Origin: Candidatus Obscuribacteraceae bacterium
GTDB lineage: Bacteria; Cyanobacteriota; Vampirovibrionia; Obscuribacterales; Obscuribacteraceae
DNA length: 64,000 nt
Assembly (NCBI GenBank): GCA_044226015.1
Contig: JBGAHS010000010.1
Location: 128,001 to 192,000, forward strand
Reading direction: 5' to 3'
Shown: piece by piece, positions 376-44,090 of the stretch
How positions within the stretch are numbered: position 1 is the first letter of the stretch
Layout: each line of letters opens with the position of its first letter
The notes under the pieces: generated by a model
Told to the model about the DNA's origin: nothing
Seen by the model: the letters and a program-made list of their open reading frames with translations, nothing else
Databases searched by the model: none
Translations under genes and position numbers: made by a program

Positions 376-1632
376 CTAATCTTCGTTGACCTTTTGTTTC
401 GTGGTCTGAAAAAATCGAATAATGCCAGCGGCAAGCAGCAGCGCATCGAACAACGCATAGACCTTTGCAAAAGGCTTTGTGTCATTGTCACTTAGCGGCA
501 AGAAAATTAGCCAACTTATGATTGGATAAAAATAGAGCGAGTAAAACCAAAATTTATTCGCAAAACCCGCTAGTTTTGAGCCTGCACTATCTACCAGCTT
601 ATCGACATCGCTAAGCTGATAACCTGGCAGCGTCAACGCTGCCGCGATGAAAACAATTAAGCAGTCATAAACCATACTATGAGGACTGAACAAAATTGCA
701 GTCATTATGGTCAGTGCAATCGGCCAGTTGAAGCTGTCTGGAGCATCCGACCCTCTTGTTGCTTTTCGCCAAATGAAAAACAAGAGCACAAGCGCAGCCA
801 AATACAAGAATGCAGCAGCATAAAGTGCAATCTCCGACGGCAAAAACGCGCTGAACAATCCTCGCAAGCTTATCATCGCTCCAGCATTCGCCTGCATCTG
901 ACCCGCTTGCTTTTCTGCAGAAAGAAGCGTCTGATGGTAGTTCAAAACAGAATCAGTCCCTATGGAAAATGCCGCAAGTCCTAGTAATAAGAGCTCGGTG
1001 CAAACAGCAGTTACAATCAACTTTGTACGCTTCAGAAAGAGAGCTGGAAACGCCACTGGGAAAATGTACTGAGGTTTTATGCAAAGTAGGGCCAGACAAA
1101 TCCCCGCAAGGATATCCTTTTTCCTTTTCAGCGAAAGAAAATACAAACCCATCAAGGTAAGGTAAAACCAGGCGAATTGCCCCCACCAGACATTGAACCA
1201 GGCAGGAAAGCACGCCGTTGCAGCTAGCAAAAACGCAAAGATCGCTGGCGCGGGCCACTTCCTTTCCGTCAGCGTTTGAAACAAAATGTAAGAACCACTG
1301 GCAATCGAAATTACGCACCAGACCAGATATGAGGTGCCCAATCCCATTAGTGCAAATGGCACCATCAGTGGAAACACAAAGGGGACAAACTGAATGAACC
1401 AGAGTTCCGTCACATGCTGCGGACTGATAACTTTGTTCGTCCATGCTAGCTGAACCTGGGGATCGTAGACATGGAAACGATCCGGCGAAAGAGCCATTGC
1501 TCCACACTGGTAGTAATGTATAAAATCCCAACAAAGCGGCCAACGTTCAACGCTGAAATGAATCAAGCATGCGTATGCAAGCAGATTCCAGACTACAAGC
1601 AAAATCACATACAGCACTGTTGAAGCTTTCAT
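376..1632 (-). CDS. Membrane glycosyltransferase, GT87/DUF2029-like
   Basis: Polytopic protein with WDF.hYY, GQ, GICLALLCIKPQY and SPHSMVYD motifs; start ATG 1632 (MKAST) has an AAGGAG RBS. Confidence 0.8.
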   Translation of the reverse strand: MKASTVLYVILLVVWNLLAYACLIHFSVERWPLCWDFIHYYQCGAMALSPDRFHVYDPQVQLAWTNKVISPQHVTELWFIQFVPFVFPLMVPFALMGLGTSYLVWCVISIASGSYILFQTLTERKWPAPAIFAFLLAATACFPAWFNVWWGQFAWFYLTLMGLYFLSLKRKKDILAGICLALLCIKPQYIFPVAFPALFLKRTKLIVTAVCTELLLLGLAAFSIGTDSVLNYHQTLLSAEKQAGQMQANAGAMISLRGLFSAFLPSEIALYAAAFLYLAALVLLFFIWRKATRGSDAPDSFNWPIALTIMTAILFSPHSMVYDCLIVFIAAALTLPGYQLSDVDKLVDSAGSKLAGFANKFWFYSLYFYPIISWLIFLPLSDNDTKPFAKVYALFDALLLAAGIIRFFQTTKQKVNED

Positions 1633-1908
1633 TGCGCAAGCTCCTTGTGCAATGGTGAGTGCCACCAGTCAATATTCGTTGAAGCTTTCACTGAGCAAGC
1701 TCCTTGAGCAACGGTGAGTGCCACCAGTCAATATTCGTTGAAGCTTTCATTGCGCAAGCTCCTTGTGCAATGGTGAGTGCCACCAGTTAATATTCGTTGA
1801 AGCTTTCATTGTGGAAGCTCCTTATGCAATGGTGAGTGCCAGTCAATATTCGTTGAAGCTTTCATTGTGGAAGCTCCTTAATCAAAGGTGATTTCCAGTC
1901 AATATTTG
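1619..1908 (-). repeat. Tandem 56-59 bp repeat (about 5 copies) of the gene junction, encoding four coupled mini-ORFs
   Basis: Unit gttgaagctttcattgcgcaagctccttgtgcaatggtgagtgccaccagtcaatattc repeats head-to-tail; the last copy is the 3' end of the upstream CDS. Confidence 0.95.
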
Positions 1909-3520
1909 GCGAGCCTAATTTTAGAAAGACAGGAAATCCGTCAACCAGAAATTTTTTATACTTTCCTTCCAAATAGGGCTGGGCATCTTGCGGCAACGCC
2001 CATAACTCCACCACCACATCTGGTGCCAGATCGCCAATCGAGTGTTTGTAGTCCCATTTCATATGACCGGGGTAAAACCAGCGCGACGAAGCTTCTTCGG
2101 GTGCGATCTTCTCCAAACTATGCATGTCCTCTTTGGCTACGACAGTATCGCATTTGCCGAGTATATCTATGCAATTGCGACCGACATAGTATGGCAATAT
2201 TCCGCACAATGTGGCTGCAATATGTCCATGTTCGAGTACGACCTTCTTCAGTGACAATGCTAACTCTAGTCGGTTTTTGTTTGGCTCCCAGGAAATAGGA
2301 TGGTCCAGTAATATCAGGTTTCGTAACCCCGGGACATTGTTGAACGATGGTAACGCTATCAATGCAATCAGAACTGCGACTTTTGCTGGTAACGATTCTA
2401 ATTTGCCCGCAGCTTTCAATTTTATTTGCGACAAAGCTCGAATACCACATGTGAAAATGATGAAAAACAACGGTATCGCCTGCGTGATGTATCTATTTCC
2501 CCACGCTTCCCAGGCGTCTCCGCCAACATAACTGCTGTACGCAAATTGTCCAGCAACAATCATTGCCAGATAGAGCGTGAAGCTTTGAGCGCGCTCTTTG
2601 AAAACTCCAAAGGCTGCAATGGCAAACAGCCACGGATTAGATTGCACGACAAATCGGTAAACGTTGAACAATCCCTGCGCAATTCTAGCCATCGGCGGAT
2701 AGCCCGTTACTTTTAAGTAGTACGTATTAGGAAGAAGATCGTGGTAATAACTGTAGCGGAACAGCTCCAGCAGTCCGAGTGAAGATCCCAACGCTATGCC
2801 GCCCTGAAGCAGATGCTTCATTCGCTGACTCTTGTCGAAAAGAAAAAGGAAGATGGTAGTACCAAGCAAAGGAACCACAGAATCCATGCGTACAAAAATT
2901 GCAAACCAGAAAAGTATGAATGCAATCAATGCCGATTTTCCAGTGGCAAGACATTCTTGAATAACGAAAGCCGCGGCAGTCAAAAGAAGCGCTAAAACTC
3001 CTACTTCCATACCCTGCAACGACCAGTTGTTTAGTGGCAGATAGAAAGCCGTCAAAACAACTGGAAGCAAAACCAACCAACTCTCCTTGCCAAAAATACC
3101 AACAGAGATCTTCTTCACCAGAAAAATGGTGGCAAGTTGAACAAATACGCCTGTAATATGAATCGCCAGGCAGATTCTTGATTCTGGAATTGGCAGAAGA
3201 TGAAAAATGCTCATGTACAAAGTCCAGAGCAGGTTGGTGAAGCCTTCGACTGGCTGTTCTCCAGGATTCCATACCAATCCCGCACCATGCGCCAAATTGT
3301 ATGCATAGCGCATCGAAATCATGGCATCATCGAATAAAACGAAATACCTTTCGCCGCTTGCGATAGTAATGGAGCACGAGTAGATGAATAAGCTTGCATA
3401 GACGACATACGCGAGCATTATCACTCCTGTAAGCAAGTCGATCTTTCTGGAGTGATTGATAGAACTGCTATTTGGGCTTTCGGTCTCTATCTTGAAATTC
3501 CTGCAATTAATACCAGCCAT
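1862..3520 (-). CDS. GT-C-type polytopic membrane glycosyltransferase (arabinofuranosyltransferase/PMT-like)
   Basis: DDAMISMRYA, VEGFTNLLW, GME, RMD, LLPNTYYLK and GGD motifs, many TM helices; start uncertain (ORF is open to 3646). Confidence 0.7.
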   Translation of the reverse strand: MAGINCRNFKIETESPNSSSINHSRKIDLLTGVIMLAYVVYASLFIYSCSITIASGERYFVLFDDAMISMRYAYNLAHGAGLVWNPGEQPVEGFTNLLWTLYMSIFHLLPIPESRICLAIHITGVFVQLATIFLVKKISVGIFGKESWLVLLPVVLTAFYLPLNNWSLQGMEVGVLALLLTAAAFVIQECLATGKSALIAFILFWFAIFVRMDSVVPLLGTTIFLFLFDKSQRMKHLLQGGIALGSSLGLLELFRYSYYHDLLPNTYYLKVTGYPPMARIAQGLFNVYRFVVQSNPWLFAIAAFGVFKERAQSFTLYLAMIVAGQFAYSSYVGGDAWEAWGNRYITQAIPLFFIIFTCGIRALSQIKLKAAGKLESLPAKVAVLIALIALPSFNNVPGLRNLILLDHPISWEPNKNRLELALSLKKVVLEHGHIAATLCGILPYYVGRNCIDILGKCDTVVAKEDMHSLEKIAPEEASSRWFYPGHMKWDYKHSIGDLAPDVVVELWALPQDAQPYLEGKYKKFLVDGFPVFLKLGSPNIDWKSPLIKELPQ

Positions 3521-5074: not shown

Positions 5075-5285
5075 TGATGGATCCGAGTCTGATGGATCCG
5101 AGCCTGATGGATCCGAGCCTGATGGATCCGAGCCTGATGGATCCGCGTCCATCTGGTCCGGGCCCATCTGGATTCGGTCCACCGTGATTCGAGTCTGATG
5201 GATCCGAGCTTGATGGATCCGCGTCCATCTGGTCCGGGCCCCTGGATCCGGTCCACCGTGATTCGAGTCCGTCGAATTCCGAATC
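5075..5285. repeat. 15-bp minisatellite (about 14 units) with a higher-order 5-unit duplication
   Basis: tgatggatccgagcc-type units; block 5120-5195 recurs at 5196-5269. Confidence 0.9.
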
Positions 5286-8602: not shown

Positions 8603-8786
8603 GATTTTAGCAAATTGCGGCTTGCTTCATCGATGGAAAATTGCCTCCTCATACCTTCGCCGTTAATTCCATGGTGGTATTGGACAATAAGTCGGCGGGG
8701 TTAACCCTACATTTTCTTCCGCAGTTTAGACCTCAGAAGAGGAGGTCCGAAATGCAATAATTTCAACAGTATCTTGGAGATTGTCT

Positions 8787-11700
8787 ATGTCACGTCAGTG
8801 GATCTATTTAGGGCTGTCAGTTTCTGCCGCATGTGCGGTCATACTTCTCAGCTTAAGCTGCGCTAATTCAAACCAATTAGAAGTTCCAGTGGGGAAAAAC
8901 GATAAGATGAGAACTAATGAGAAACTAACATCAGCACTCGGTGGCGAGCAAAGATATCTCACTTTTGTAAGTACAGACAAACCAATCTATAAAATTGGCG
9001 AAAAGGTTTATGTGAAAGGTGTACTGTTGAGCGCAGGCAGTCACAAACCTCTCGATGATAAAACCACTGTTCGTCCGCACATTCAAATTCTTGGTCCAAA
9101 AGGAGATGTGATCGCATCCGGGGGAAGCTCGACAAATGAGAGCATTTGGTCCTTTGGCTGGGATGTTCCAGCAGGACAGGCTGGCGGTGAATATAAGGTT
9201 AAAGTAACTTATCCTTCTGAAGGTTATTGCCCTGCGGAAAGAAAATTCGATGTGCGCGCCTACAGGGCACCAAGGCTGAAATCCCAGATCACATTTATGA
9301 GAGATGGCTACGCTCCGGGAGATAAAGTCACAGCAACACTCGATGTTCATCGTGCCGAAGGTGGCGCGCCCGTAGGAGCTAATGTTTCAGTAAATGCGGT
9401 AGTTGACGGCATTTCGCTGAGTGGAACCTCGTCAAAAGTTGATCAGAATGGATTGGCTTCCATTAGTTTTGACCTTCCGAATAATATTCCGCGCGGCGAA
9501 GGAACTCTTGCGCTTGCCATCGAAGATGGTGGCGTGCTTGAAACAGCATCTAAGACTATTCCCATCCTGATGCAAACCGTTGATCTGCAAATTTTTCCCG
9601 AGGGCGGAGAGCTGGTTTCTGGTTTCAAAAACAGAGTGTACATTCAAGCTAAACAACCGAACGGTAAACCCGCAGATCTAGCTGGGAAAATAATCTGTGA
9701 AAGCGATAACTCTACAGCAGGTTCTTTTAAGACAGAGCACGAAGGACGAGGAAGGTTTGAGTTTAGTCCAGAGCGCGGTAAGAAATACTATTTGACCATA
9801 GATCAACCTTCGGGAATTAAGACGCGCTTCAAATTGCCTGAGGTAATAGCAAGCGGAGCTGTAATTAAAACGGATAAGGATGTCTACGATAAGGCAAGCC
9901 CAATCAAAGTTCACATCGGGTGCAGCGAGAAAGAATATCGGGTGAGCATCTCACAAAAGGAACATGAGCTTGCAGCACAAATAGTTGATAATTCTGTTTC
10001 GGGGAAATCGCAAGCGCTGTCATTTGATTTGCCCGAAAATATTGACGGCGTCTTGACGCTTACGGTTTGGAGCAAAGATGACAAACCACTAGCTGAAAGA
10101 CTTCTGTTCCGCCGTTCAGCTCATCCATTGAATATCACTTTGAAAACGGACATGGACCATTATGTTCCTGGTGATCAAGCTAAAGTTACGGTAAAAGCTA
10201 CTGACGATAAAGGCAAACCTGTTTCAGCAGTTGTAGGTTTGACTATTACAGATGATAGCGTTCTTGAAATGATTGAAAAACGTGAACAGGCGCCTCGTCT
10301 TCCAGTTATGGTATATCTGGAACCCGAAGTAGAAGACTTGGCTGATGCCCATGTTTACATGGACGAGACCAACCCAAATGCCGGAATGGCGACCGACCTC
10401 TTGTTAGGAACTCAGGGGTGGCGTCGGTTTGCCCTAAAAAACTTAAGTGAATTTGTTGCTAGCCATGGTGACAAAGCTAGAAGGGCTGTTGCCCTCAAAA
10501 TCGTTGTGCCCAGCGAGCAACAGGCTGCATGGCACGGTGGTGGCGTGGCTTTCGCTGTTCCACCAGGCGGAATTGCAGATATGAATGCTGTGCGGGCAAT
10601 GCCAGTACCAATGCCGTTAGCTGCTCCTGTGCCTGAAGCTGTGCCTAAATCTGCCGTGCTGGCGATAAAGGAAAATAAGCCAGTGGCAAAACAAGAAGTC
10701 GCAATGGATATGCCAGTTGGTGAATTGAAAAAAATTGCTCAAGCTAAAGATGCCTTCGCTGATGGTGATCAAGGGAAATTGCAAGATGCAATAATGGTCG
10801 CTGATAAGCGCGCTCGTAGAGCGGTTGGTGCTGGATTTGGAGTAGCATTTGACGAAATAGCCCCTGTTAGAAATGATTTTGTTTTTGTTCGTGAATATGC
10901 ACACCAAAACAGAGAAAATAGAGAAGCTAATGATCGCCGTGATTTTACCGAAACTGTTTACTGGAATGCCGGTGTAAAGACGGATGCCACCACAGGTGAG
11001 GCGACTGTTAGTTTTGCCTTGAATGACAGTGTGACGACTTTCAGAATGTTTGCTGACGGGTTTACTCAGGGTGGAGCCATTGGTTCAACTAGCGGTGGCA
11101 TTGAGTCTGTAAGACCATTCTATGCTGAGGCGAAGTTGCCCCTGGAAGTTACGGCGGGTGATCAGATTCTCCTTCCCATCAGTCTTGTTAATTCTGGCAC
11201 CAGTGATCTCACCGAGTTGGGTGTGGGCGTCAATTTGACTGGAGACTTCAAACTAATGGACCTGCAGAGAGTTTCCCAATCTCTCAAAGCCAACGAAAGA
11301 CAACGTTGGATTCAACCAATCAATGTAGGATTTGGAAATGGAAACAAAGAATTTGTTTTAGACACTAAGGCTGGCAAGTATTCCGACAAAGTGACCCGCA
11401 CTCTGCTGGTTAAGCCTAAAGGATTCCCAATAGAAGTGCCTTGCTCTGGTATTTTGGAGGCTGGCAAACCCGCCATTCACACCATCAAGATTCCGGCTGC
11501 GCTCGTGACAGATAGTATTGTTTGTAATACCGCAGTTTATCCTACACCGCTGGCTAATATGACAGAGGCGCTTCAACGTTTAATTCAAGATCCCTATGGT
11601 TGTTTTGAGCAGACCTCCTCAACAAGCTATCCACTGACCATGGCTCAACAATATTTCGTGTCGCATACTGGTGTAGATCCGAAATTAGTGCAAAGTTCTA

Positions 11701-13016
11701 AAGAGAAGTTAGACGCCGGATATAAGCGTCTAGTTAGTTTCTGGTGTCCAGATAAAGGTTACGAATGGTTTGGCGAGAATCCAGGACATGAGGCTCTAAC
11801 AGCTTTCGGTTTATTGCATTTTTCCGATATGTCACAAGTTCGCGATGTCGATAAGACCATGGTGTCTTCAACTCGTGAATGGTTGCTTAAGCAAAGAGAT
11901 GGCAAAGGTGGATTCAATCGCAAACGCCGCGCATTACATTCATGGATTGAGGACAAAGACTGTTCTGATGCTTATATCACCTGGGCGCTGCTTGAGACAG
12001 GTGTACCGCGTGGAGATCTTTCTGCAGAAATTGATCGCCTCAAAATAGCAGCAAAAGAAAGCAAGAATTCTTATGTAAAAGCACTTGCTGCGATTGCTTT
12101 CATCAAGGCTGGTGAAGCAAGCACTGCTGCGCCTCTTCTAGACGAGCTTGCAAAGAAACAGAAGCCAGATGGTAGCGTAGACAGTATTACTGCTTCCATC
12201 GTTGGGTCCGGCGGCGAGTCGCTAATCATTGAAGGAACTTCACTTGCTACCTTAGCCTGGATGTCCGACCCACGCTATACGGGCAACGTCGAGCGCAGCA
12301 TAAAATTCCTTGCTGATTCCTGTCAATCTGGAAGATATGGCTCAACTCAAGCCACGGTTCTTGCTCTACGCGCCATCGTTCAATACGATAAGAATAGAGC
12401 AAGACCAAAGGCAGATGGCAAAGTAAGGGTATTTGTAGATGGACATGCAGTTGGTGATTGGGTTGAATTCACCCCCACAACGCAAGGTGCAATTAAGCTC
12501 CCCGACATTAGTGAATTGTTGACGCCGGGTGAGCATAAATTGGAGTTGCGAATGGAAGGTGGAGGAGCCATGCCATATTCGATGTCCGTGAATTACAATA
12601 CAACTCTTCCAGTAAGCTCAGCAGATTGTAAGTTGGATATTGCTGTGAAACTTGCCGCAGACAAATTGCAAGAAGGCAGTGCGACTGTAGCAAATGTCGT
12701 TGTTCAAAATAAAACCGCTGAAGTTGTGCCCACACCTGTTGCCATTTTGGGGCTACCAGGTGGTCTTGAACCTCGGCATGACCAACTCAAAGAACTCGTG
12801 AAGAAGGGCACCATCGCAGCATATGAAGTTATAGGCAGAGAAGTCGTACTCTATTGGCGCGACATGCAGCCAAACGAGAAAGTTGAGGTGCCTGTCTCTC
12901 TGATTGCAGCGATTCCGGGTAAATACAAGGCTCCGGCAAGTCGAGCCTATCTGTATTACACCGACGAGAATAAGACGTGGGTAGACGGTCTAGAGGTTGA
13001 GATTGCTGCCAAGTAA
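8787..13016 (+). CDS. Alpha-2-macroglobulin family thioester protein
   Basis: TDKPIYKIGE (MG domain), FTETVYW, thioester PYGCFEQ, STQATVLAL, PGKYKAPASRAYLYY; GGAG RBS before ATG 8787. Confidence 0.92.
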   Translation: MSRQWIYLGLSVSAACAVILLSLSCANSNQLEVPVGKNDKMRTNEKLTSALGGEQRYLTFVSTDKPIYKIGEKVYVKGVLLSAGSHKPLDDKTTVRPHIQILGPKGDVIASGGSSTNESIWSFGWDVPAGQAGGEYKVKVTYPSEGYCPAERKFDVRAYRAPRLKSQITFMRDGYAPGDKVTATLDVHRAEGGAPVGANVSVNAVVDGISLSGTSSKVDQNGLASISFDLPNNIPRGEGTLALAIEDGGVLETASKTIPILMQTVDLQIFPEGGELVSGFKNRVYIQAKQPNGKPADLAGKIICESDNSTAGSFKTEHEGRGRFEFSPERGKKYYLTIDQPSGIKTRFKLPEVIASGAVIKTDKDVYDKASPIKVHIGCSEKEYRVSISQKEHELAAQIVDNSVSGKSQALSFDLPENIDGVLTLTVWSKDDKPLAERLLFRRSAHPLNITLKTDMDHYVPGDQAKVTVKATDDKGKPVSAVVGLTITDDSVLEMIEKREQAPRLPVMVYLEPEVEDLADAHVYMDETNPNAGMATDLLLGTQGWRRFALKNLSEFVASHGDKARRAVALKIVVPSEQQAAWHGGGVAFAVPPGGIADMNAVRAMPVPMPLAAPVPEAVPKSAVLAIKENKPVAKQEVAMDMPVGELKKIAQAKDAFADGDQGKLQDAIMVADKRARRAVGAGFGVAFDEIAPVRNDFVFVREYAHQNRENREANDRRDFTETVYWNAGVKTDATTGEATVSFALNDSVTTFRMFADGFTQGGAIGSTSGGIESVRPFYAEAKLPLEVTAGDQILLPISLVNSGTSDLTELGVGVNLTGDFKLMDLQRVSQSLKANERQRWIQPINVGFGNGNKEFVLDTKAGKYSDKVTRTLLVKPKGFPIEVPCSGILEAGKPAIHTIKIPAALVTDSIVCNTAVYPTPLANMTEALQRLIQDPYGCFEQTSSTSYPLTMAQQYFVSHTGVDPKLVQSSKEKLDAGYKRLVSFWCPDKGYEWFGENPGHEALTAFGLLHFSDMSQVRDVDKTMVSSTREWLLKQRDGKGGFNRKRRALHSWIEDKDCSDAYITWALLETGVPRGDLSAEIDRLKIAAKESKNSYVKALAAIAFIKAGEASTAAPLLDELAKKQKPDGSVDSITASIVGSGGESLIIEGTSLATLAWMSDPRYTGNVERSIKFLADSCQSGRYGSTQATVLALRAIVQYDKNRARPKADGKVRVFVDGHAVGDWVEFTPTTQGAIKLPDISELLTPGEHKLELRMEGGGAMPYSMSVNYNTTLPVSSADCKLDIAVKLAADKLQEGSATVANVVVQNKTAEVVPTPVAILGLPGGLEPRHDQLKELVKKGTIAAYEVIGREVVLYWRDMQPNEKVEVPVSLIAAIPGKYKAPASRAYLYYTDENKTWVDGLEVEIAAK

Positions 13017-14045: not shown

Positions 14046-14316
14046 TTAGTATTACCCGCAATTGATCCACAGATTGGAGAGTCATCGAAAAGCTGTGTCC
14101 TCAGCCTTCTATAGTCCTGACTTTTTACGACCGTAAGATTGGCAATTCGTACTGCACGTTTATACATATAGCTTTGAGTTTGACATTCCTAAAGTGAACT
14201 TGGGGAGCGTTTAGTTCTTTCTGCATTGCCGATTTTCAATAATCGCAAGCTGATGCTGAGACTAAGCGGATGGCGTGAACTAATTTACGTTGAGTGAAAG
14301 CTCAACAGGAGAAACC

Positions 14317-16986
14317 ATGGCTGAACTGGAAAAAGATTCAAACACGAAGAATGAAGCGCACTCAAAACCAAATTCCCACTTGGCTGCAGAAGCCATGGAA
14401 GACTACCAGATCGGTGATAAGACAGTTCGATTACCCGGTGGGTTTCAGAGGAATGAACCAAAAGAAGATCGCACATATTTTCCGGCGCCAGACCTGAACA
14501 AAAACCTTGTTCCGAAAGGAAGTCCTGATGCCACCACAGGTGCGGCGCCTCGTGGCACTCTAGACTCACTCAAGCATAACGTTGGTGAAACAATAGGTGA
14601 TATTCTTGGCTATTCTGTGCGCTGGAAGGCGCAGCTAGCAGACAAATTCACTCAAGATAAATCATGGGAAGAATTTGGCAAAGACCGTAGCTTCTTTGGA
14701 CGAGCTCTAGATCTTGCGCGTCCAGTTAATCGAAGAAATCAGATTGAAGATCATAACCTGCAATCTGCCTACCCGAAAAACGAACAAACAGGTCATGTGT
14801 CAAAAGACATGGCGTGCTCGGCCGCATCTGAGGTCTCAAGAAGTGTTGATGGTACATGCAATGATTTGAAAGACCCGGCAATGGGCGCAGCTGGAACACG
14901 CTTCCAGTACAATACTCGTCCTGACGATAAATACGCAATAAACGATCCACCATTGATGGATGCTGCAAAGCTGTTGGATCGAAAGGAATTTAAAGAGCTA
15001 CCAGTATTGAATCTTCTTGGTGTTGCCTCTCTGCAAGGCAATGTTCATGACTGGATGGATCATGGCAAACACCAGAATATGGCTGGTGGCATGCACACGA
15101 TTGAACTTCCTGATGATCATCCTATTCGACAAAAGTACGGTCAAACGGAAATGAAGATTCCGAAGCTTTTGATCGATTCGACCCGCACCGAAAGTGATGG
15201 CAAAGAACAGATTCGGCAGACTTATGAGAACACTGTCACTCACTGGTGGGACGCCTCTGAAATTTATGGCTCTGACGCAGAAACCGCATCAAGGCTTCGT
15301 GCTCATAAAGATGGCAAAATGCGTCTCACCGACGATGGATTGCTTCCTATAGGCCCGCAAGGAGTGCCAGACACAGGGTTTAACCAGAACTGGAATCCTC
15401 TTCTTGAAGTGGTGCATACGCTTTACGTTCGAGAGCATAATTCTGTTGCTGATATGCTCACGAAAGCATATCCACAAAAAGATTTTGAGCAATGGAAGGG
15501 CAAGTTGCCCGAAATACTCAAACCTATGTTCGGTGAAAAGCTGCCCGACAAGCTAAGCGATGAACAATACGATGAATTTATCTATAGTCGCGCTCGGCTC
15601 ATCACCGCCGCAGAAAAGGCGAAGATTCACACCGTTGATTGGACGCCAGTCGCTCTGAACAATCCAACAATGACTGAAGCTATGCGCGACAACTACGGGC
15701 AAGAGAAAGTCGGCTGGAGAGCAAACGTCAACGAACATGAAATTGGCGGTATCTGGGGCAACAAAACTCATCAAGCTGGTGTTCCCTATGCGATGGAAGA
15801 AGACTTTGTGCAGTCGTATCAGCAGATGCATGGGCTGGTTCCTGATCAGTTCAAACTTTATGACCACAACTCTGGCAAGCAAATTGCTGATATCCCCATG
15901 GGAGCAGCCTTGCAGGCAAACTCACGCAAAGTCATTGAAGCAGCTGGCTTTGATAATGTTCTCTATTCCATGGGAGTCGATAAGGCGGGTCAGATAACTG
16001 CTGGCAACCATCCGAATTTTATGCGCGATTTGAACGTTCGTGGCAATTATGTCGATATGGCCGCGGTTGATATTTTGCGCGGGCGTGAGAAACATCTGCC
16101 AAGGTACAACGAATACTTGCGGCAGATGCATGAAAAACCTGTTAGCAGTTTCGAAGAACTGGTTCCCAATAACGTTGAATTGCGCGAAGCTATTCGCAAA
16201 GTCTACAACAATGATATTGAGAAAGTTGATACCGTCATCGGTTCATTGGCTGAATGGCCGGATCGCACTCCCAAGACAATGGGATTCTCTGCTTCGACTT
16301 TCCTCGAGTTTATATTGATGGCGTCTCGCAGAGTCCAGGCTGACCGCTTCTACACTGAAGACTTTCGTCCCGAAATATATACTCCCGAGGGAATCGCCAG
16401 AATTCGTAATCTCAATGGTATGCGGGACGTAATCGAGCGCAACGCTCCAAATCTAAAAGAAGCTGTGAGCACCAGAGATAGTTCCTTCCACCCTCTCGGA
16501 AAGGATCCAATTCCGCTGAATAACTCAGGCATCGATATGTTGCCCACCAATGACCTGCAATCACAGCTTGCCGCTTTCGATGCAGATCGAAATGGTGAGC
16601 TGAGCTACGGAGAGTTAGCCGATGGATATAGAGCAATGGGCTATAACGCTGCGCACGCCTACTTGAAAGCTGCTGATGCTCGCTACCAATTCGGTAAGGT
16701 TATTGCTGATTTTAAGCCAACTACCGCAGGAATTTATAAAGCAGATGGCAGTATAGATCAGACTCGAATTGATTCGCTTTTCAAAGGGCGCGACTCTGTG
16801 TCTATTTCTGAGGCTGAGAATTTTGCTGGACTACGCTCAAATGGACCTGTGTCACAGGAATTTGCACTGAGCCAACTCGGTGTTCTAAAGTCCGCTGGGT
16901 CAAAATCAGTCACCAGAGACGCTTTCGTCAAGGCGATGAGAGGCGACATCTTGCGCCAGAAGATCGCAGAACAGAAAGCAAAATAG
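14317..16986 (+). CDS. Peroxidase-cyclooxygenase superfamily heme enzyme (alpha-dioxygenase-like) with C-terminal EF-hand/caleosin-like domain
   Basis: RSVDGTCND, HDWMDH, WWDASEIYG, REHN, AKIHTVDWT, VPY...F...Y..MH, DILRGRE..LPRYNE; EF loop DADRNGELSYGE; AGGAG RBS. Confidence 0.88.
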   Translation: MAELEKDSNTKNEAHSKPNSHLAAEAMEDYQIGDKTVRLPGGFQRNEPKEDRTYFPAPDLNKNLVPKGSPDATTGAAPRGTLDSLKHNVGETIGDILGYSVRWKAQLADKFTQDKSWEEFGKDRSFFGRALDLARPVNRRNQIEDHNLQSAYPKNEQTGHVSKDMACSAASEVSRSVDGTCNDLKDPAMGAAGTRFQYNTRPDDKYAINDPPLMDAAKLLDRKEFKELPVLNLLGVASLQGNVHDWMDHGKHQNMAGGMHTIELPDDHPIRQKYGQTEMKIPKLLIDSTRTESDGKEQIRQTYENTVTHWWDASEIYGSDAETASRLRAHKDGKMRLTDDGLLPIGPQGVPDTGFNQNWNPLLEVVHTLYVREHNSVADMLTKAYPQKDFEQWKGKLPEILKPMFGEKLPDKLSDEQYDEFIYSRARLITAAEKAKIHTVDWTPVALNNPTMTEAMRDNYGQEKVGWRANVNEHEIGGIWGNKTHQAGVPYAMEEDFVQSYQQMHGLVPDQFKLYDHNSGKQIADIPMGAALQANSRKVIEAAGFDNVLYSMGVDKAGQITAGNHPNFMRDLNVRGNYVDMAAVDILRGREKHLPRYNEYLRQMHEKPVSSFEELVPNNVELREAIRKVYNNDIEKVDTVIGSLAEWPDRTPKTMGFSASTFLEFILMASRRVQADRFYTEDFRPEIYTPEGIARIRNLNGMRDVIERNAPNLKEAVSTRDSSFHPLGKDPIPLNNSGIDMLPTNDLQSQLAAFDADRNGELSYGELADGYRAMGYNAAHAYLKAADARYQFGKVIADFKPTTAGIYKADGSIDQTRIDSLFKGRDSVSISEAENFAGLRSNGPVSQEFALSQLGVLKSAGSKSVTRDAFVKAMRGDILRQKIAEQKAK

Positions 16987-39063: not shown

Positions 39064-40761
39064 ATGACGCCACGAAAGGTGCTTATGTTCTTTCCTCGAA
39101 ACTTAGTTTCTTCGCATTCTGCATTTTTGCTTTTATCGTTATCGATAAGCACGGCTAGTGCTAGCGCTGCGATCGATGCAAGCAGTGAAAATAGAAGTGC
39201 CATAGACTCGTCTATGCGCGCTCTTAAAACACGCATGCCGACAGAGAGCGATAAGAAGCCAACAAAATACATTCTTGAACTGCAGGCTACTCAGAATGTG
39301 CGACCTTTTGGCAATGAACCGTTGCACAAAATTGAAGTTCCTCTGGAACGAATTGATTCTGGTGGCATCAATCTTGATACGGGCAAGGATGACACTGGCG
39401 TTATAATCGAGACGCCTCCTATAACTTCTTTGATAAAGCTGAGGGATCATTTGAACCCCTTCTCGCTCGATGCCACTTATGTCACTCGCATTGACCTGAA
39501 GGAAGTTCTGGAGACGGTGCTGAATCAAAATCTTGATATTGACAGTGCCTTTGTTCGAAGCAAATCTCAGAAGTGGCAGACACTATCAACCGCGAGTGGG
39601 TTTTTGCCGAACATAAATACTGGCTACAGCATATTTGGCATCAAGGGATCCTTTCCTGGTGCAGTGCTCGGTGGTGGCAGTGGGGCTGCGAAATTACCCA
39701 GTTTTGCCCAACTTCTGACTGCAGGTTTCACCTACAATGCCTACCAGGGCGGCAAAATTTTGTTTGGTACTCTGGCTGAACGTCATCGATACAGAGCCAC
39801 ACGCGCAGGGCTCAAAACAAATATCAACGACGCCCTTCTTCAATCTGCAAGACGCTACTACGAACTTTTAAACAGCGAAGCACTATTGGCTATTCGAACC
39901 AGAGCAGTTTCGATATCTGAGGAGCAGGTTCGACTGAACACTGCCCACGAGAAAGCTGGTATTGCGACAGGTCTTGATGTTTTGCAGTCTCAAGCTCAAC
40001 TTGCCAGTGATGAGCAAAACTTGATTGAGCAGCAGAATAGCCGGCGACAATCTGCCATTCAATTAGCGCACCTGATGAATTCGAGCTTTACTGAAGATTT
40101 TAAGTCTGCAGACAAATACTTGCAAATGAAGAGACTGGTGCCGAATACGATACCGGTAGAGCAATTGCTCAAGTTGGCTATCGACCAGCGCCCAGAGTTA
40201 AAACAGTACGAAGAACTGCGTCTTGCTGCGAAGCGTTCAATCATGGTTGCTGCTTCGCCGTTGCAGCCAAACGTCTCTTTGGGTGGAACCGTATATGGTA
40301 TTGGCGCCTCGGGGTCCAATATTGATTCGATTTATACATTGAATCTTGGTGTTAAGTGGTTTCTTGGTGGTTTAGGAACTACAGACCTTGCAAACATACA
40401 AAAAGCTCGCTGGGAAGCGCGGCAGGCAGCCATTCAAGCTAAGCAAACATTTTTGACCGTGTTTGAAGAAGTCCGTACATCTTACAATTCAAGTCTGGCT
40501 GCAGACAAGAAAGTCGACCGCGCAACTGTACAGATTCAAGCTGCAGAGGAAGAGCTTCGTATCGCGAGGAAGCGAATGGACGCTGGAGTGGGTTTGAATA
40601 TCGATGTATTGAATGCACAGCGCGATTTGACTCAGGCAAGCATCAACAAGGCTAGAGCAATTTTGGAATACAACGTTGCTCAGGCGCAACTGCTTCGTGA
40701 TATAGGTTCAATTTCGGTGACTGGTCTATTGAGCGGCATCAAACAGAGCGACATCAGATAG
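39064..40761 (+). CDS. TolC family outer membrane efflux protein
   Basis: Two OEP repeats (GIATGLDVLQSQAQL; GVGLNIDVLNAQRDL). Confidence 0.9.
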   Translation: MTPRKVLMFFPRNLVSSHSAFLLLSLSISTASASAAIDASSENRSAIDSSMRALKTRMPTESDKKPTKYILELQATQNVRPFGNEPLHKIEVPLERIDSGGINLDTGKDDTGVIIETPPITSLIKLRDHLNPFSLDATYVTRIDLKEVLETVLNQNLDIDSAFVRSKSQKWQTLSTASGFLPNINTGYSIFGIKGSFPGAVLGGGSGAAKLPSFAQLLTAGFTYNAYQGGKILFGTLAERHRYRATRAGLKTNINDALLQSARRYYELLNSEALLAIRTRAVSISEEQVRLNTAHEKAGIATGLDVLQSQAQLASDEQNLIEQQNSRRQSAIQLAHLMNSSFTEDFKSADKYLQMKRLVPNTIPVEQLLKLAIDQRPELKQYEELRLAAKRSIMVAASPLQPNVSLGGTVYGIGASGSNIDSIYTLNLGVKWFLGGLGTTDLANIQKARWEARQAAIQAKQTFLTVFEEVRTSYNSSLAADKKVDRATVQIQAAEEELRIARKRMDAGVGLNIDVLNAQRDLTQASINKARAILEYNVAQAQLLRDIGSISVTGLLSGIKQSDIR

Positions 40762-40877
40762 GGCGAGATAGGGCGGTATCAATTAGAGCGACATCAGATA
40801 GGGCGACATCAAGTTGAGCGGCGTTCAAGTTGAGTGGCATTCAATAGAGCGACATTCAAGTTGAGCGACATCAATTA
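40731..40877. repeat. Degenerate 15-bp minisatellite (10 units) starting inside the TolC 3' end
   Basis: gagcgacatcagata / gagcgacatcaatta / gggcgacatcaagtt variants. Confidence 0.85.
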
Positions 40878-40882
40878 GGACG

Positions 40883-42542: not shown

Positions 42543-44090
42543 CTACTTCTTTTGGGTGAATATTCCTTCGACAAAACTTGTTAGCGGAGCGGCACTTAGT
42601 TGAGAAGGTAACGTGATGCCGAACAATGTTGTCGTTGTTGACGCTGCAGTAGTCTTCTGAATAGATACGGTTGTGGAAGCTGAACCCTTTGCAAAAAGCA
42701 ATGGCGCAACTACACGTGGTGGCTTAATTGGTAGTGGAGTTGGTGTTCGCAAGGGTGGTCTCAAGCCAGGCGACCTCGCCGGAATAGTCGGTATCGGTAA
42801 CGGTCGGGGGGTTAGCACTGGTCGAGGGATTCTCGGCGTGGGAGTTGGAGTCGGAGTTGGAGTTGGAGTTGGAGTTGGAGTCGGAGTTGGAGTCGGAGTT
42901 GGAGTTGGAGTTGGAGTCGGAGTCGGAGTTGGAGTTGGAGTCGGAGTTGGAGTCGGAGTTGGAGTCGGAGTTGGAGTTGGAGTGGGAGTTGGAGTCGGAG
43001 TTGGAGTTGGAGTTGGAGTTGGAGTCGGAGTCGGAGTTGGAGTGGGAGTTGGTGTCGGAGTCGGAGTCGGAGTTTGATTTTTTGCAAGATTTGCAATCAG
43101 AACTTTCATCTGCGGTGTGTCCTGTCCGTTGACAGGTTCCACTCCAAATACATATGCTTGCCACCATGGACCTGCAGACCAGTATGTGTAGCCGTCCCAC
43201 TGTGCCTTGTTTGCATAGATGTATTTCAGCATCGCGTCAAGATCATCCAGCCCACCCGTGCTAGCTGGTACCCCGATTTCGCCAAGAAAACCTGTGCGGT
43301 TGTTTGCTTTCAACCATGCTGTGAATCCCGTTAAGTACGAAACGGCTTCCGCAACACTCACTGTATCTGTTGTGTTTCCGGAACCGTCGTAATTGACGTA
43401 TTCATGAACTTCAAATGTAAAATTGTTCGCAGAGTCTGTGAGCTTTAACATCTCCGCCCCAGTAGTTTCTACGAAGTTTCGTGCATGGTTCCAATATGGT
43501 GCAGACACAACTATCAGGCTGGTATTCCCTGCAGCTCTAATTGCATTGATTGCTTCCTGAGTCGAAATACGCCAGGTCTCAGAAGTCATGCCTGCACCAT
43601 TTGGTTCCCCCATCAAACTTAGAATTACTTTTGAGTTGTTCTTATATCTGGTTCCTATCTTGCTCCAGAAGTCTGCGAAAACTGAGTTAGCAACGCCACC
43701 GGGAACGCCCACAATCGCACCATAATACTCACCGTGATTATGAAGTTCGATCATTGTGGTCATGCCTTTTGCTGCGGCATAGTTTACGACTGCGTCTATC
43801 TGCGCAAGGTAGTTCGGTTCAAGGGCACCATTGGCGGTGGGTTGTGTTCGTTCCCATGCGATGGGAAGCCGAATTATGTTCATACCCCTTGCAGCAAAAT
43901 AGTCTAGTTCTGCTGTAGTAGGAAATACATAGTCGTAATTATTGACGCCAGGAAAAACGCCAGCACCCCATTCAGCGCCTGATATGCTTACGCCCTCGTA
44001 CTTCATTCCGCCAGTGGCAGCAATTGAGCTATTGTCCACCAGGAGGGCGAAGGAAAGCGCTGTGACTATTGGAAGGAATTTTCGCAGCAT
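42543..44090 (-). CDS. Secreted GH5 glycoside hydrolase (endoglucanase-like) with long Pro-Thr linker
   Basis: [38 protein letters not shown]. Confidence 0.9.
42838..43074 (-). repeat. Coding hexamer repeat (about 39 Pro-Thr units)
   Basis: ggagtt/ggagtc/ggagtg hexamers varying mostly at the synonymous position. Confidence 0.95.

Follow-up and report, generated by a model that had tools for sequence, protein, structure and literature searches.

In a 64,000-nucleotide stretch of DNA from a Candidatus Obscuribacteraceae bacterium (the window, whose first letter is position 1), a tandem array bridges the gene for an AftB-like GT-C glycosyltransferase and the gene for a glycosyltransferase of family 87 (GT87). 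We consider it likely that this array, a tandem repeat that varies between strains and is made of copies of the overlap where one gene stops and the other starts, is tolerated because its mini-ORFs pass ribosomes on to GT87, with relay-breaking variants being purged. The strains probably put up with the array as a variable repeat and do not need it for control, and the handing on of ribosomes probably explains its tolerance but not its existence. If so, the locus would be a clean example of translational coupling deciding which junction duplications survive.

The array, placed by TRF at positions 1619 to 1879 with a period of 59 nt, 4.5 copies, and 92% matches, is the sole locus of its kind in the genome. 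The upstream gene (1862 to 3418, minus strand, 518 amino acids) ends in a TGA that overlaps the ATG of mini-ORF 1; the downstream gene (376 to 1632, minus strand, 418 amino acids) starts at 1632. Between them, the minus strand carries starts at 1865 (ATG), 1809 (ATG), 1750 (ATG), and 1691 (GTG), defining units of 56, 59, 59, and 59 nt in that order and mini-ORFs of 19 to 20 codons each. In all five hand-overs of the chain the stop ends 3 nt past the next start, giving a 4-nt NTGA overlap in terms of geometry, and AAGGAG stands 8 nt before every start, including that of GT87. The short repeated unit thus lies at a gene junction and has the geometry of -4-nt ORF coupling. An earlier note on this DNA had described four coupled mini-ORFs here; its coordinates and peptides, along with the AAGGAG motifs and the 4-nt overlaps, were all reproduced, and the five NTGA overlaps support its view that the geometry, as predicted from sequence, would preserve coupling.

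Each unit joins the first five codons (15 nt) of GT87 to a copy of the upstream gene's final 14 codons (41 to 44 nt), a fusion that supports the proposed origin by amplification of the junction. Mini-ORF 1 (1806 to 1865, minus strand; 56-nt unit, 19 amino acids) is nearest to the gene tail, with 5 differences in the 48 nt compared. Mini-ORF 2 (1747 to 1809, minus strand; 59-nt unit, 20 amino acids) has a D-to-N change and an extra Trp codon, and the last codon of mini-ORF 3 (1688 to 1750, minus strand; 59-nt unit, 20 amino acids) turns the next start into GTG. Mini-ORF 4 (1629 to 1691, minus strand; 20 amino acids), which begins with that GTG, contains the GT87 SD, and its stop overlaps the GT87 ATG. 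The units differ from one another at 7 positions and by one indel. The synonymous differences listed in the earlier note are present, but its list left out those that alter amino acids, namely D/N, H/L, and P/A among units, and K to H, I to H/L, and an added W relative to the real tail of the upstream gene; altogether, 6 of 11 substitutions in the units change a residue. Tandem Trp codons are present in units 2 to 4, the second Trp codon having arisen by TGG duplication in these three units.

The assignment of the downstream gene to GT87 rests on a match to PF09594 (E = 1.2e-19; 71.5 bits against a curated cutoff of 25). Its start at 1632 is represented in the protein collection, where a longer frame starting with GTG at 1665 is absent. 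A GT87 relative that is 94% identical (P0003) begins MKMKAST, which, at the protein level, points to an independent duplication of 6 nt at this start. The upstream protein, used as a single query, had no Pfam match, and a single-sequence search of the PDB gave no hits. A profile of 67 homologs, drawn from a pool of 116 full-length homologs plus the query, matched AftB (9dlf; E = 3.5e-9), and 16 of the 67 homologs matched PMT_2. The AlphaFold model of the upstream protein (pLDDT of 93) has AftB, ArnT, and PglB as its top fold matches. Together with the profile, the model supports a GT-C enzyme with an AftB-like N-terminal half; GT-C enzymes work outside the cytoplasm, on lipid-linked donors. 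We rejected the candidate assignment as an AftB equivalog (NF041481; E = 0.004, 15.2 bits against a cutoff of 1050). An atlas search with the upstream protein returned unnamed clusters and a PMT_2 lead on 38% of the members of one cluster. Of the homologs of the upstream protein, the nearest two (61% and 64%) carry the label Candidatus Obscuribacterales. The protein belongs to a widespread unnamed GT-C family, with at least 583 and 569 encoding stretches in two scans, many of whose carriers are Chloroflexota or Acidobacteriota; the family has an AftB-like fold and the invariant motifs FDDAM, GGDxW, and PGHxK.

The source of the window is a metagenome assembly, and no listed piece covers the whole stretch, as one might expect if the array were an assembly artefact. 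We regard this as a negligible prospect. The units are mutually distinct at 7 positions and by an indel, and pieces from run X4 (1661 to 1749, 1720 to 1818, and 1789 to 1874) tile 1661 to 1874 with 0 differences to the window, so that the order of the units is real, although X4 may itself be the source sample. A second study, P2, contains an 86-nt piece of the array, which matches 1795 to 1880.

The number of units differs between close strains. In run X2, which belongs to a different study from X4, a 5,995-nt contig with a depth of 11.6 joins position 1613 to position 1850 with three letters between. It skips 236 nt and inserts 3, a net difference of 233 nt, equal to 56+59+59+59, or exactly four units (1633 to 1865, minus strand). 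In this zero-copy junction, the upstream tail runs through ATGA directly into GT87, and the two genes are coupled without an intermediary. Neither frame is affected: no truncation is seen in the variant proteins P0002, P0005, and P0006, and the real tail of the upstream gene is identical in P0004, P0005, and P0006. Since the main contig of run X2 has no array and leaves both proteins intact, the array is dispensable in one strain. Run X2 also contains an 86-nt array piece at a depth of 2.2; the two alleles differ at further sites and hence look like distinct strains. A contig from run X3 has the four unit-3 letters at the unit-4 position, with a unit of the unit-3 type directly before GT87, which starts with GTG; a three-unit allele is the simplest reading of that contig. 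Because the contigs of X3 have five of the flank differences listed for X2 (1431, 1551, 2051, 2219, and 2237), junctions with and without the array occur on closely similar backgrounds. The alleles thus comprise four units, another unit order, and zero units, the four runs concerned amounting to at most two samples from two studies; runs X5, X6, and X12 had no pieces over 1200 to 1676. Variation in copy number between strains, which the earlier note had offered as something to look for, is borne out by the zero-copy main contig of X2 and the other unit order in X3.

The sequence of these alleles bears on the age of the array. The units retain codon states of the X2 allele (CCA in the tail and ACG at GT87 codon 5), while the window's own gene ends have changed, and P0003 has Ile6 in common with the X2-type protein. 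Junctions with and without the array show approximately 12 differences in approximately 100 nt, nearly all silent and five of them known as tool counts rather than as individually listed sites, versus approximately 1% in the flanks. From this pattern, we infer that the array is old and did not arise by a recent slip, and that recombination has exchanged or removed the block at the junction. The age of the array and its coexistence with a zero-copy allele likewise fit a maintained polymorphism.

One rival reading is a copy-number rheostat, in which the balance between GT87 and the upstream transferase, and through it a surface glycan, would depend on how many units there are and of which type (start codon ATG or GTG, strength of the hairpin), with fluctuating selection such as phage keeping the alleles. 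There are at least three alleles, two of them within one run; both flanking genes encode GT-C enzymes; and the excess of junction differences over the flanks is as in an old polymorphism. In the available part of one study of a different organism, tandem-repeat copy number changed expression 12.5-fold, by means of promoter repeats and not of a relay (PMC12817950). We nevertheless find it doubtful that copy number sets GT87 output in this way, for reasons that appear below, and equally doubtful that strains with 0, about 3, or 4 units show different surface glycans and coexist under fluctuating selection. If it were true, the locus would be a case of phase variation at the level of translation, not of frame or promoter, and the zero-copy allele beside array alleles makes the question directly testable.

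Outside this species, we found neither the array nor its setting. DNA of the window matched 2 of 103 other genomes of the family, in both cases within the body of the upstream gene, and the array matched none of the 103. The upstream gene has matches in 8 of 41 genomes, including the one that holds the window; in three congeners inspected, the upstream homolog has a different tail and no GT87 within 1.5 kb. GT87-family matches occur in 18 of 25 genomes, with 22 to 38% identity outside the genome's own gene. Among the matches listed, there were 154 homologous loci, of which the 128 with a full tail and 300 nt downstream were examined. In this set, no array spans the stop and no GT87 match occurs, and 8 loci have a -4/-1 overlap to an ORF of at least 100 amino acids. 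Thus, neither the array nor the pairing of an AftB-like GT-C gene with a GT87 gene was found in the other species searched. Confinement of the array to one species among those searched speaks against a rheostat on GT87. There is no second copy of the unit in the genome (the best other match has an E value of 0.015 over 37 nt), and viral contigs gave 0 matches; a mobile or dispersed repeat family was rejected on these grounds and because the unit derives from the flanking genes.

To put the array in context, we surveyed the tandem arrays of the same genome, which has 584 such loci covering 118,486 bases, or 1.4% of its length; 164 of them have a period of 30 to 150, three or more copies, and matches of 80% or higher. 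That the genome makes such arrays by the hundreds is a further point against a device for setting GT87 output. Among the 493 arrays with a period of at least 20, chance chains of at least 3 overlapping mini-ORFs occur in 70, and chains of at least 4 in 29. The plus strand of the array at 1619 to 1879 likewise yields a chain of coupled mini-ORFs. Such chains are therefore not rare by chance. The relay in this array is largely a matter of arithmetic: a period of 2 mod 3 keeps both halves of a unit, which were already coding, in their original frames, so both halves are free of stops, and each unit is open and has its stop on the next start. Of the possible periods for a duplication that spans an ATGA junction, a third give a relay. 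What sets this array apart is its position. It is the only one of the 493 with an SD on three or more starts, and it is alone in having an SD on every start and linking two real genes; of 498 crudely called starts, none but that of GT87 lies within an array. The mini-ORF chain itself is cheap by chance, and the special part is its location at a real coupled junction.

Several further arrays were observed in the course of this survey. Intergenic arrays of differing period share short palindromic cores and are clustered regionally, with one core family on C4 at about 18 to 126 kb, another on C1, C7, and C12, and another at the C10 and C11 ends; these regional arrays may represent an undescribed repeat family. 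In two further cases, the 3' end of a gene has been duplicated: just past the left end of the window (G000:C4:126760-126917), where a 77-nt unit lies at the end of the enoyl-CoA hydratase-like gene that follows GT87, and at C7:701001-701073, where the unit has 34 nt. The stop of an ORF of at least 200 codons falls inside 48 of the 493 arrays, some of these ORFs being shadow frames. The window holds additional arrays at 5075 to 5269 (nested 15-nt and 76-nt units), 40733 to 40878 (15- to 16-nt units), and 42841 to 43074 (a 6-nt unit in 39 copies). Elsewhere in the window, by sequence impression, a 1,411-amino-acid ORF (8781 to 13016, plus strand) resembles a bacterial alpha-2-macroglobulin, and an 898-amino-acid ORF (14290 to 16986, plus strand) resembles a heme peroxidase or dioxygenase whose C-terminal part is caleosin-like.

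We next asked how far the array could be a strictly neutral minisatellite, with incidental mini-ORFs, GT87 initiating at its own SD, and no selection on the relay. In its favor, a relay arises by construction at one period in three, and chance chains are present in 70 of the 493 arrays. The 11 substitutions and the single indel, of 3 nt, leave every start, stop, reading frame, and SD core undisrupted. From substitutions alone, the probability of no break is 0.22 to 0.35, a range that fits neutrality; when the SD core is also required to stay intact, it falls to 0.07 to 0.16. Among units, 5 of 8 substitutions are synonymous, versus 22 to 28% expected (P = 0.016 to 0.046), and inclusion of the three fixed changes relative to the tail gives 5 of 11 (P = 0.07 to 0.18). 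All of these tests are post hoc, and the same bias would result if the units had picked up synonymous variants and an intact SD from the real gene ends by recombination. Selection preserving the relay is thus weakly suggested by the sequence of the units. The 3-nt length of the sole indel, the intact SD core, and the synonymous excess among units all count against strict neutrality, as does the age of the array: it has been there long enough to decay, since its units hold X2-allele codon states that have since changed in the gene ends of the window. Strict neutrality seems unlikely to us. Neutral slippage, the fallback of the earlier note, nonetheless comes closest to our favored reading, once the array is taken to be old and its relay to have probably been kept intact by filtering.

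RNA structure offers a reason why GT87 might depend on the relay. A stem between the SD and codons 2 to 4 is predicted at all five starts of the chain, with an opening cost of 7.7 to 9.7 kcal/mol. At GT87, where the cost is 9.7 kcal/mol, the SD (AAGGAG, 1646 to 1641) and its predicted 7-bp stem occupy 1622 to 1646 on the minus strand. The median opening cost is 5.3 kcal/mol for 116 coupled junctions, of which 20 reach 7.6 and 9 reach 9.7 kcal/mol, and 5.9 kcal/mol for 382 uncoupled SD starts as identified by crude start calls, of which 101 reach 7.6 kcal/mol. The predicted occlusion of the GT87 start is thus above the median, yet not extreme. Occlusion of the SD would be a reason for GT87 to need an arriving ribosome, and the place of GT87 among the more occluded starts is another point against strict neutrality; retention of the full AAGGAG before GT87 is a point for it. 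A stronger SD hairpin in the later units would suit a rheostat, but when random variants were folded, with the indel scored as substitutions, 0.07 to 0.31 of them folded as well, which is within chance; the gain that bears on the rheostat, at 0.07 to 0.10, is no exception.

The earlier note had suggested that the tandem Trp codons could tune GT87. In such a trpL-type arrangement, Trp scarcity would stall ribosomes at the Trp-Trp codons of units 2 to 4 and shut GT87 down, and the gain of the second Trp codon in three units by TGG duplication is what one would look for. We consider this highly improbable, and the analysis did not support the proposal. The coding strand from 1865 to 1629 contains no terminator-like site, and the array folds no better than its shuffled versions (z-score of 0.01). 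The SD is hidden in either of the two predicted local folds, which leaves no room for a switch. GT87 itself has 15 Trp codons, one Trp-Trp pair among them. Rfam gave no match at the gathering score; the only hit, mir-753, at 25 bits against a gathering score of 62, was taken as chance.

Polarity was considered as a filter on the relay. Rho was above the family cutoff in none of 8 genomes of the genus (the genome of the window and seven others, 70 to 95% complete), versus 8 of 14 controls, and Rho polarity was rejected as the filter. The failure to find Rho in these genomes is in keeping with a neutral array. The searches returned weak partial matches in the genus, which are probably other ATPases.

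A loss of coupling is another way in which a broken relay could matter. According to the portion available of one study, spacing of about 20 nt nearly abolishes coupling (PMC10666635), so that the 233 bases of the array, if untranslated, would be expected to uncouple the gene pair. We therefore picture the history of the junction as follows. In a genome rich in such tandem arrays, slippage or unequal recombination would have multiplied and rearranged one junction duplication, of the 56-nt unit 1 type. At each of five successive overlaps, ribosomes finishing the frame before it would reinitiate, or open the SD hairpin so that new ones can start. Were the relay broken, GT87 would be left on a partly occluded SD, its output would drop, and the variant would likely be lost. 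Extra units, because every one brings an SD of its own, could push GT87 output down or up, or buffer it.

The peptides themselves are likely degraded by-products in this scheme. The earlier note had raised small peptides as a possible product, and the alternative is that these 19- to 20-amino-acid peptides are functional, as regulators or substrates of both transferases. Each start does have a strong SD, and 5 of the 8 changes among units are synonymous. Set against this, 6 of 11 substitutions change a residue in the units, when the real tail remains identical in P0004, P0005, and P0006; the units are missing from the main X2 allele and from all other species and loci searched; and the peptides have no hydrophobic or signal segment, whereas GT-C enzymes work outside the cytoplasm. 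Nor does the locus resemble a small-peptide or RiPP precursor array, in which the peptide would be conserved across species together with its enzymes: 0 of 128 homolog tails and 0 of 103 other family genomes have it. A function for the peptides is accordingly not supported, and we hold it to be very unlikely.

The literature, chiefly non-subscription papers, yielded no description of relay arrays born from their own junction, nor of phase variation by translation set by copy number, and no paper combined Obscuribacter with tandem repeats. The special value of the array lies in a natural allelic series (0 units, 4 units, and another order) on near-identical flanks. Such a series is a ready-made test of how much signal survives serial termination-reinitiation and of whether SD-bearing fillers raise, lower, or buffer translation.

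Several known systems resemble the array in part. Attenuators of the trpL type have a short leader ORF with tandem Trp codons and a terminator with a competing antiterminator. Units 2 to 4 are likewise short ORFs with tandem Trp codons, but the array has no terminator/antiterminator pair, lies in mid-operon, and is unlinked to Trp metabolism. Glycosyltransferase contingency loci are examples of phase-variable tandem repeats. As with the phase-variable copy-number repeats described in the available part of PMC12817950, copy number varies here beside genes that likely shape the surface; the array differs in that no frame switch or promoter role was seen, and any effect is predicted at translation. 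Bicistronic designs and ribosome-delivering uORFs, as covered in the accessible text of PMC12548453, share with the array a short ORF that likely does nothing more than bring ribosomes to the gene coupled to it, whereas the array is natural, operon internal, repeated, and dispensable in a close strain. Translational coupling at -4 overlaps, through termination-reinitiation or RNA unfolding, offers the NTGA overlap, an SD within the upstream frame, and a predicted hairpin over the start as points of likeness, to judge from the parts available of PMC10666635 and PMC12548453; in place of one hand-over, the array is predicted to make five in series via four filler ORFs.

The closest parallel is the MIRU (mycobacterial interspersed repetitive unit). 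In the available portion of PMC12548453, MIRUs are apparently mobile units that insert at start codons; each is a short repeat whose internal ORF has a -4-nt coupling to the gene after it, likely with little consequence for expression. The junction array is also a short repeat between two genes of an operon, and its ORFs have the same -4-nt geometry. It is not a MIRU: as its sequence indicates, it occupies a single locus, was built from its own two neighbors, and sits in another host, the closest homologs of the upstream gene being labelled Candidatus Obscuribacterales and not mycobacterial, where the MIRUs of the same partly available source are apparently mobile. By analogy, the best reading of the array is a locally born VNTR that would work like a mycobacterial MIRU, yet outside Actinobacteria and in a genome without detectable Rho.
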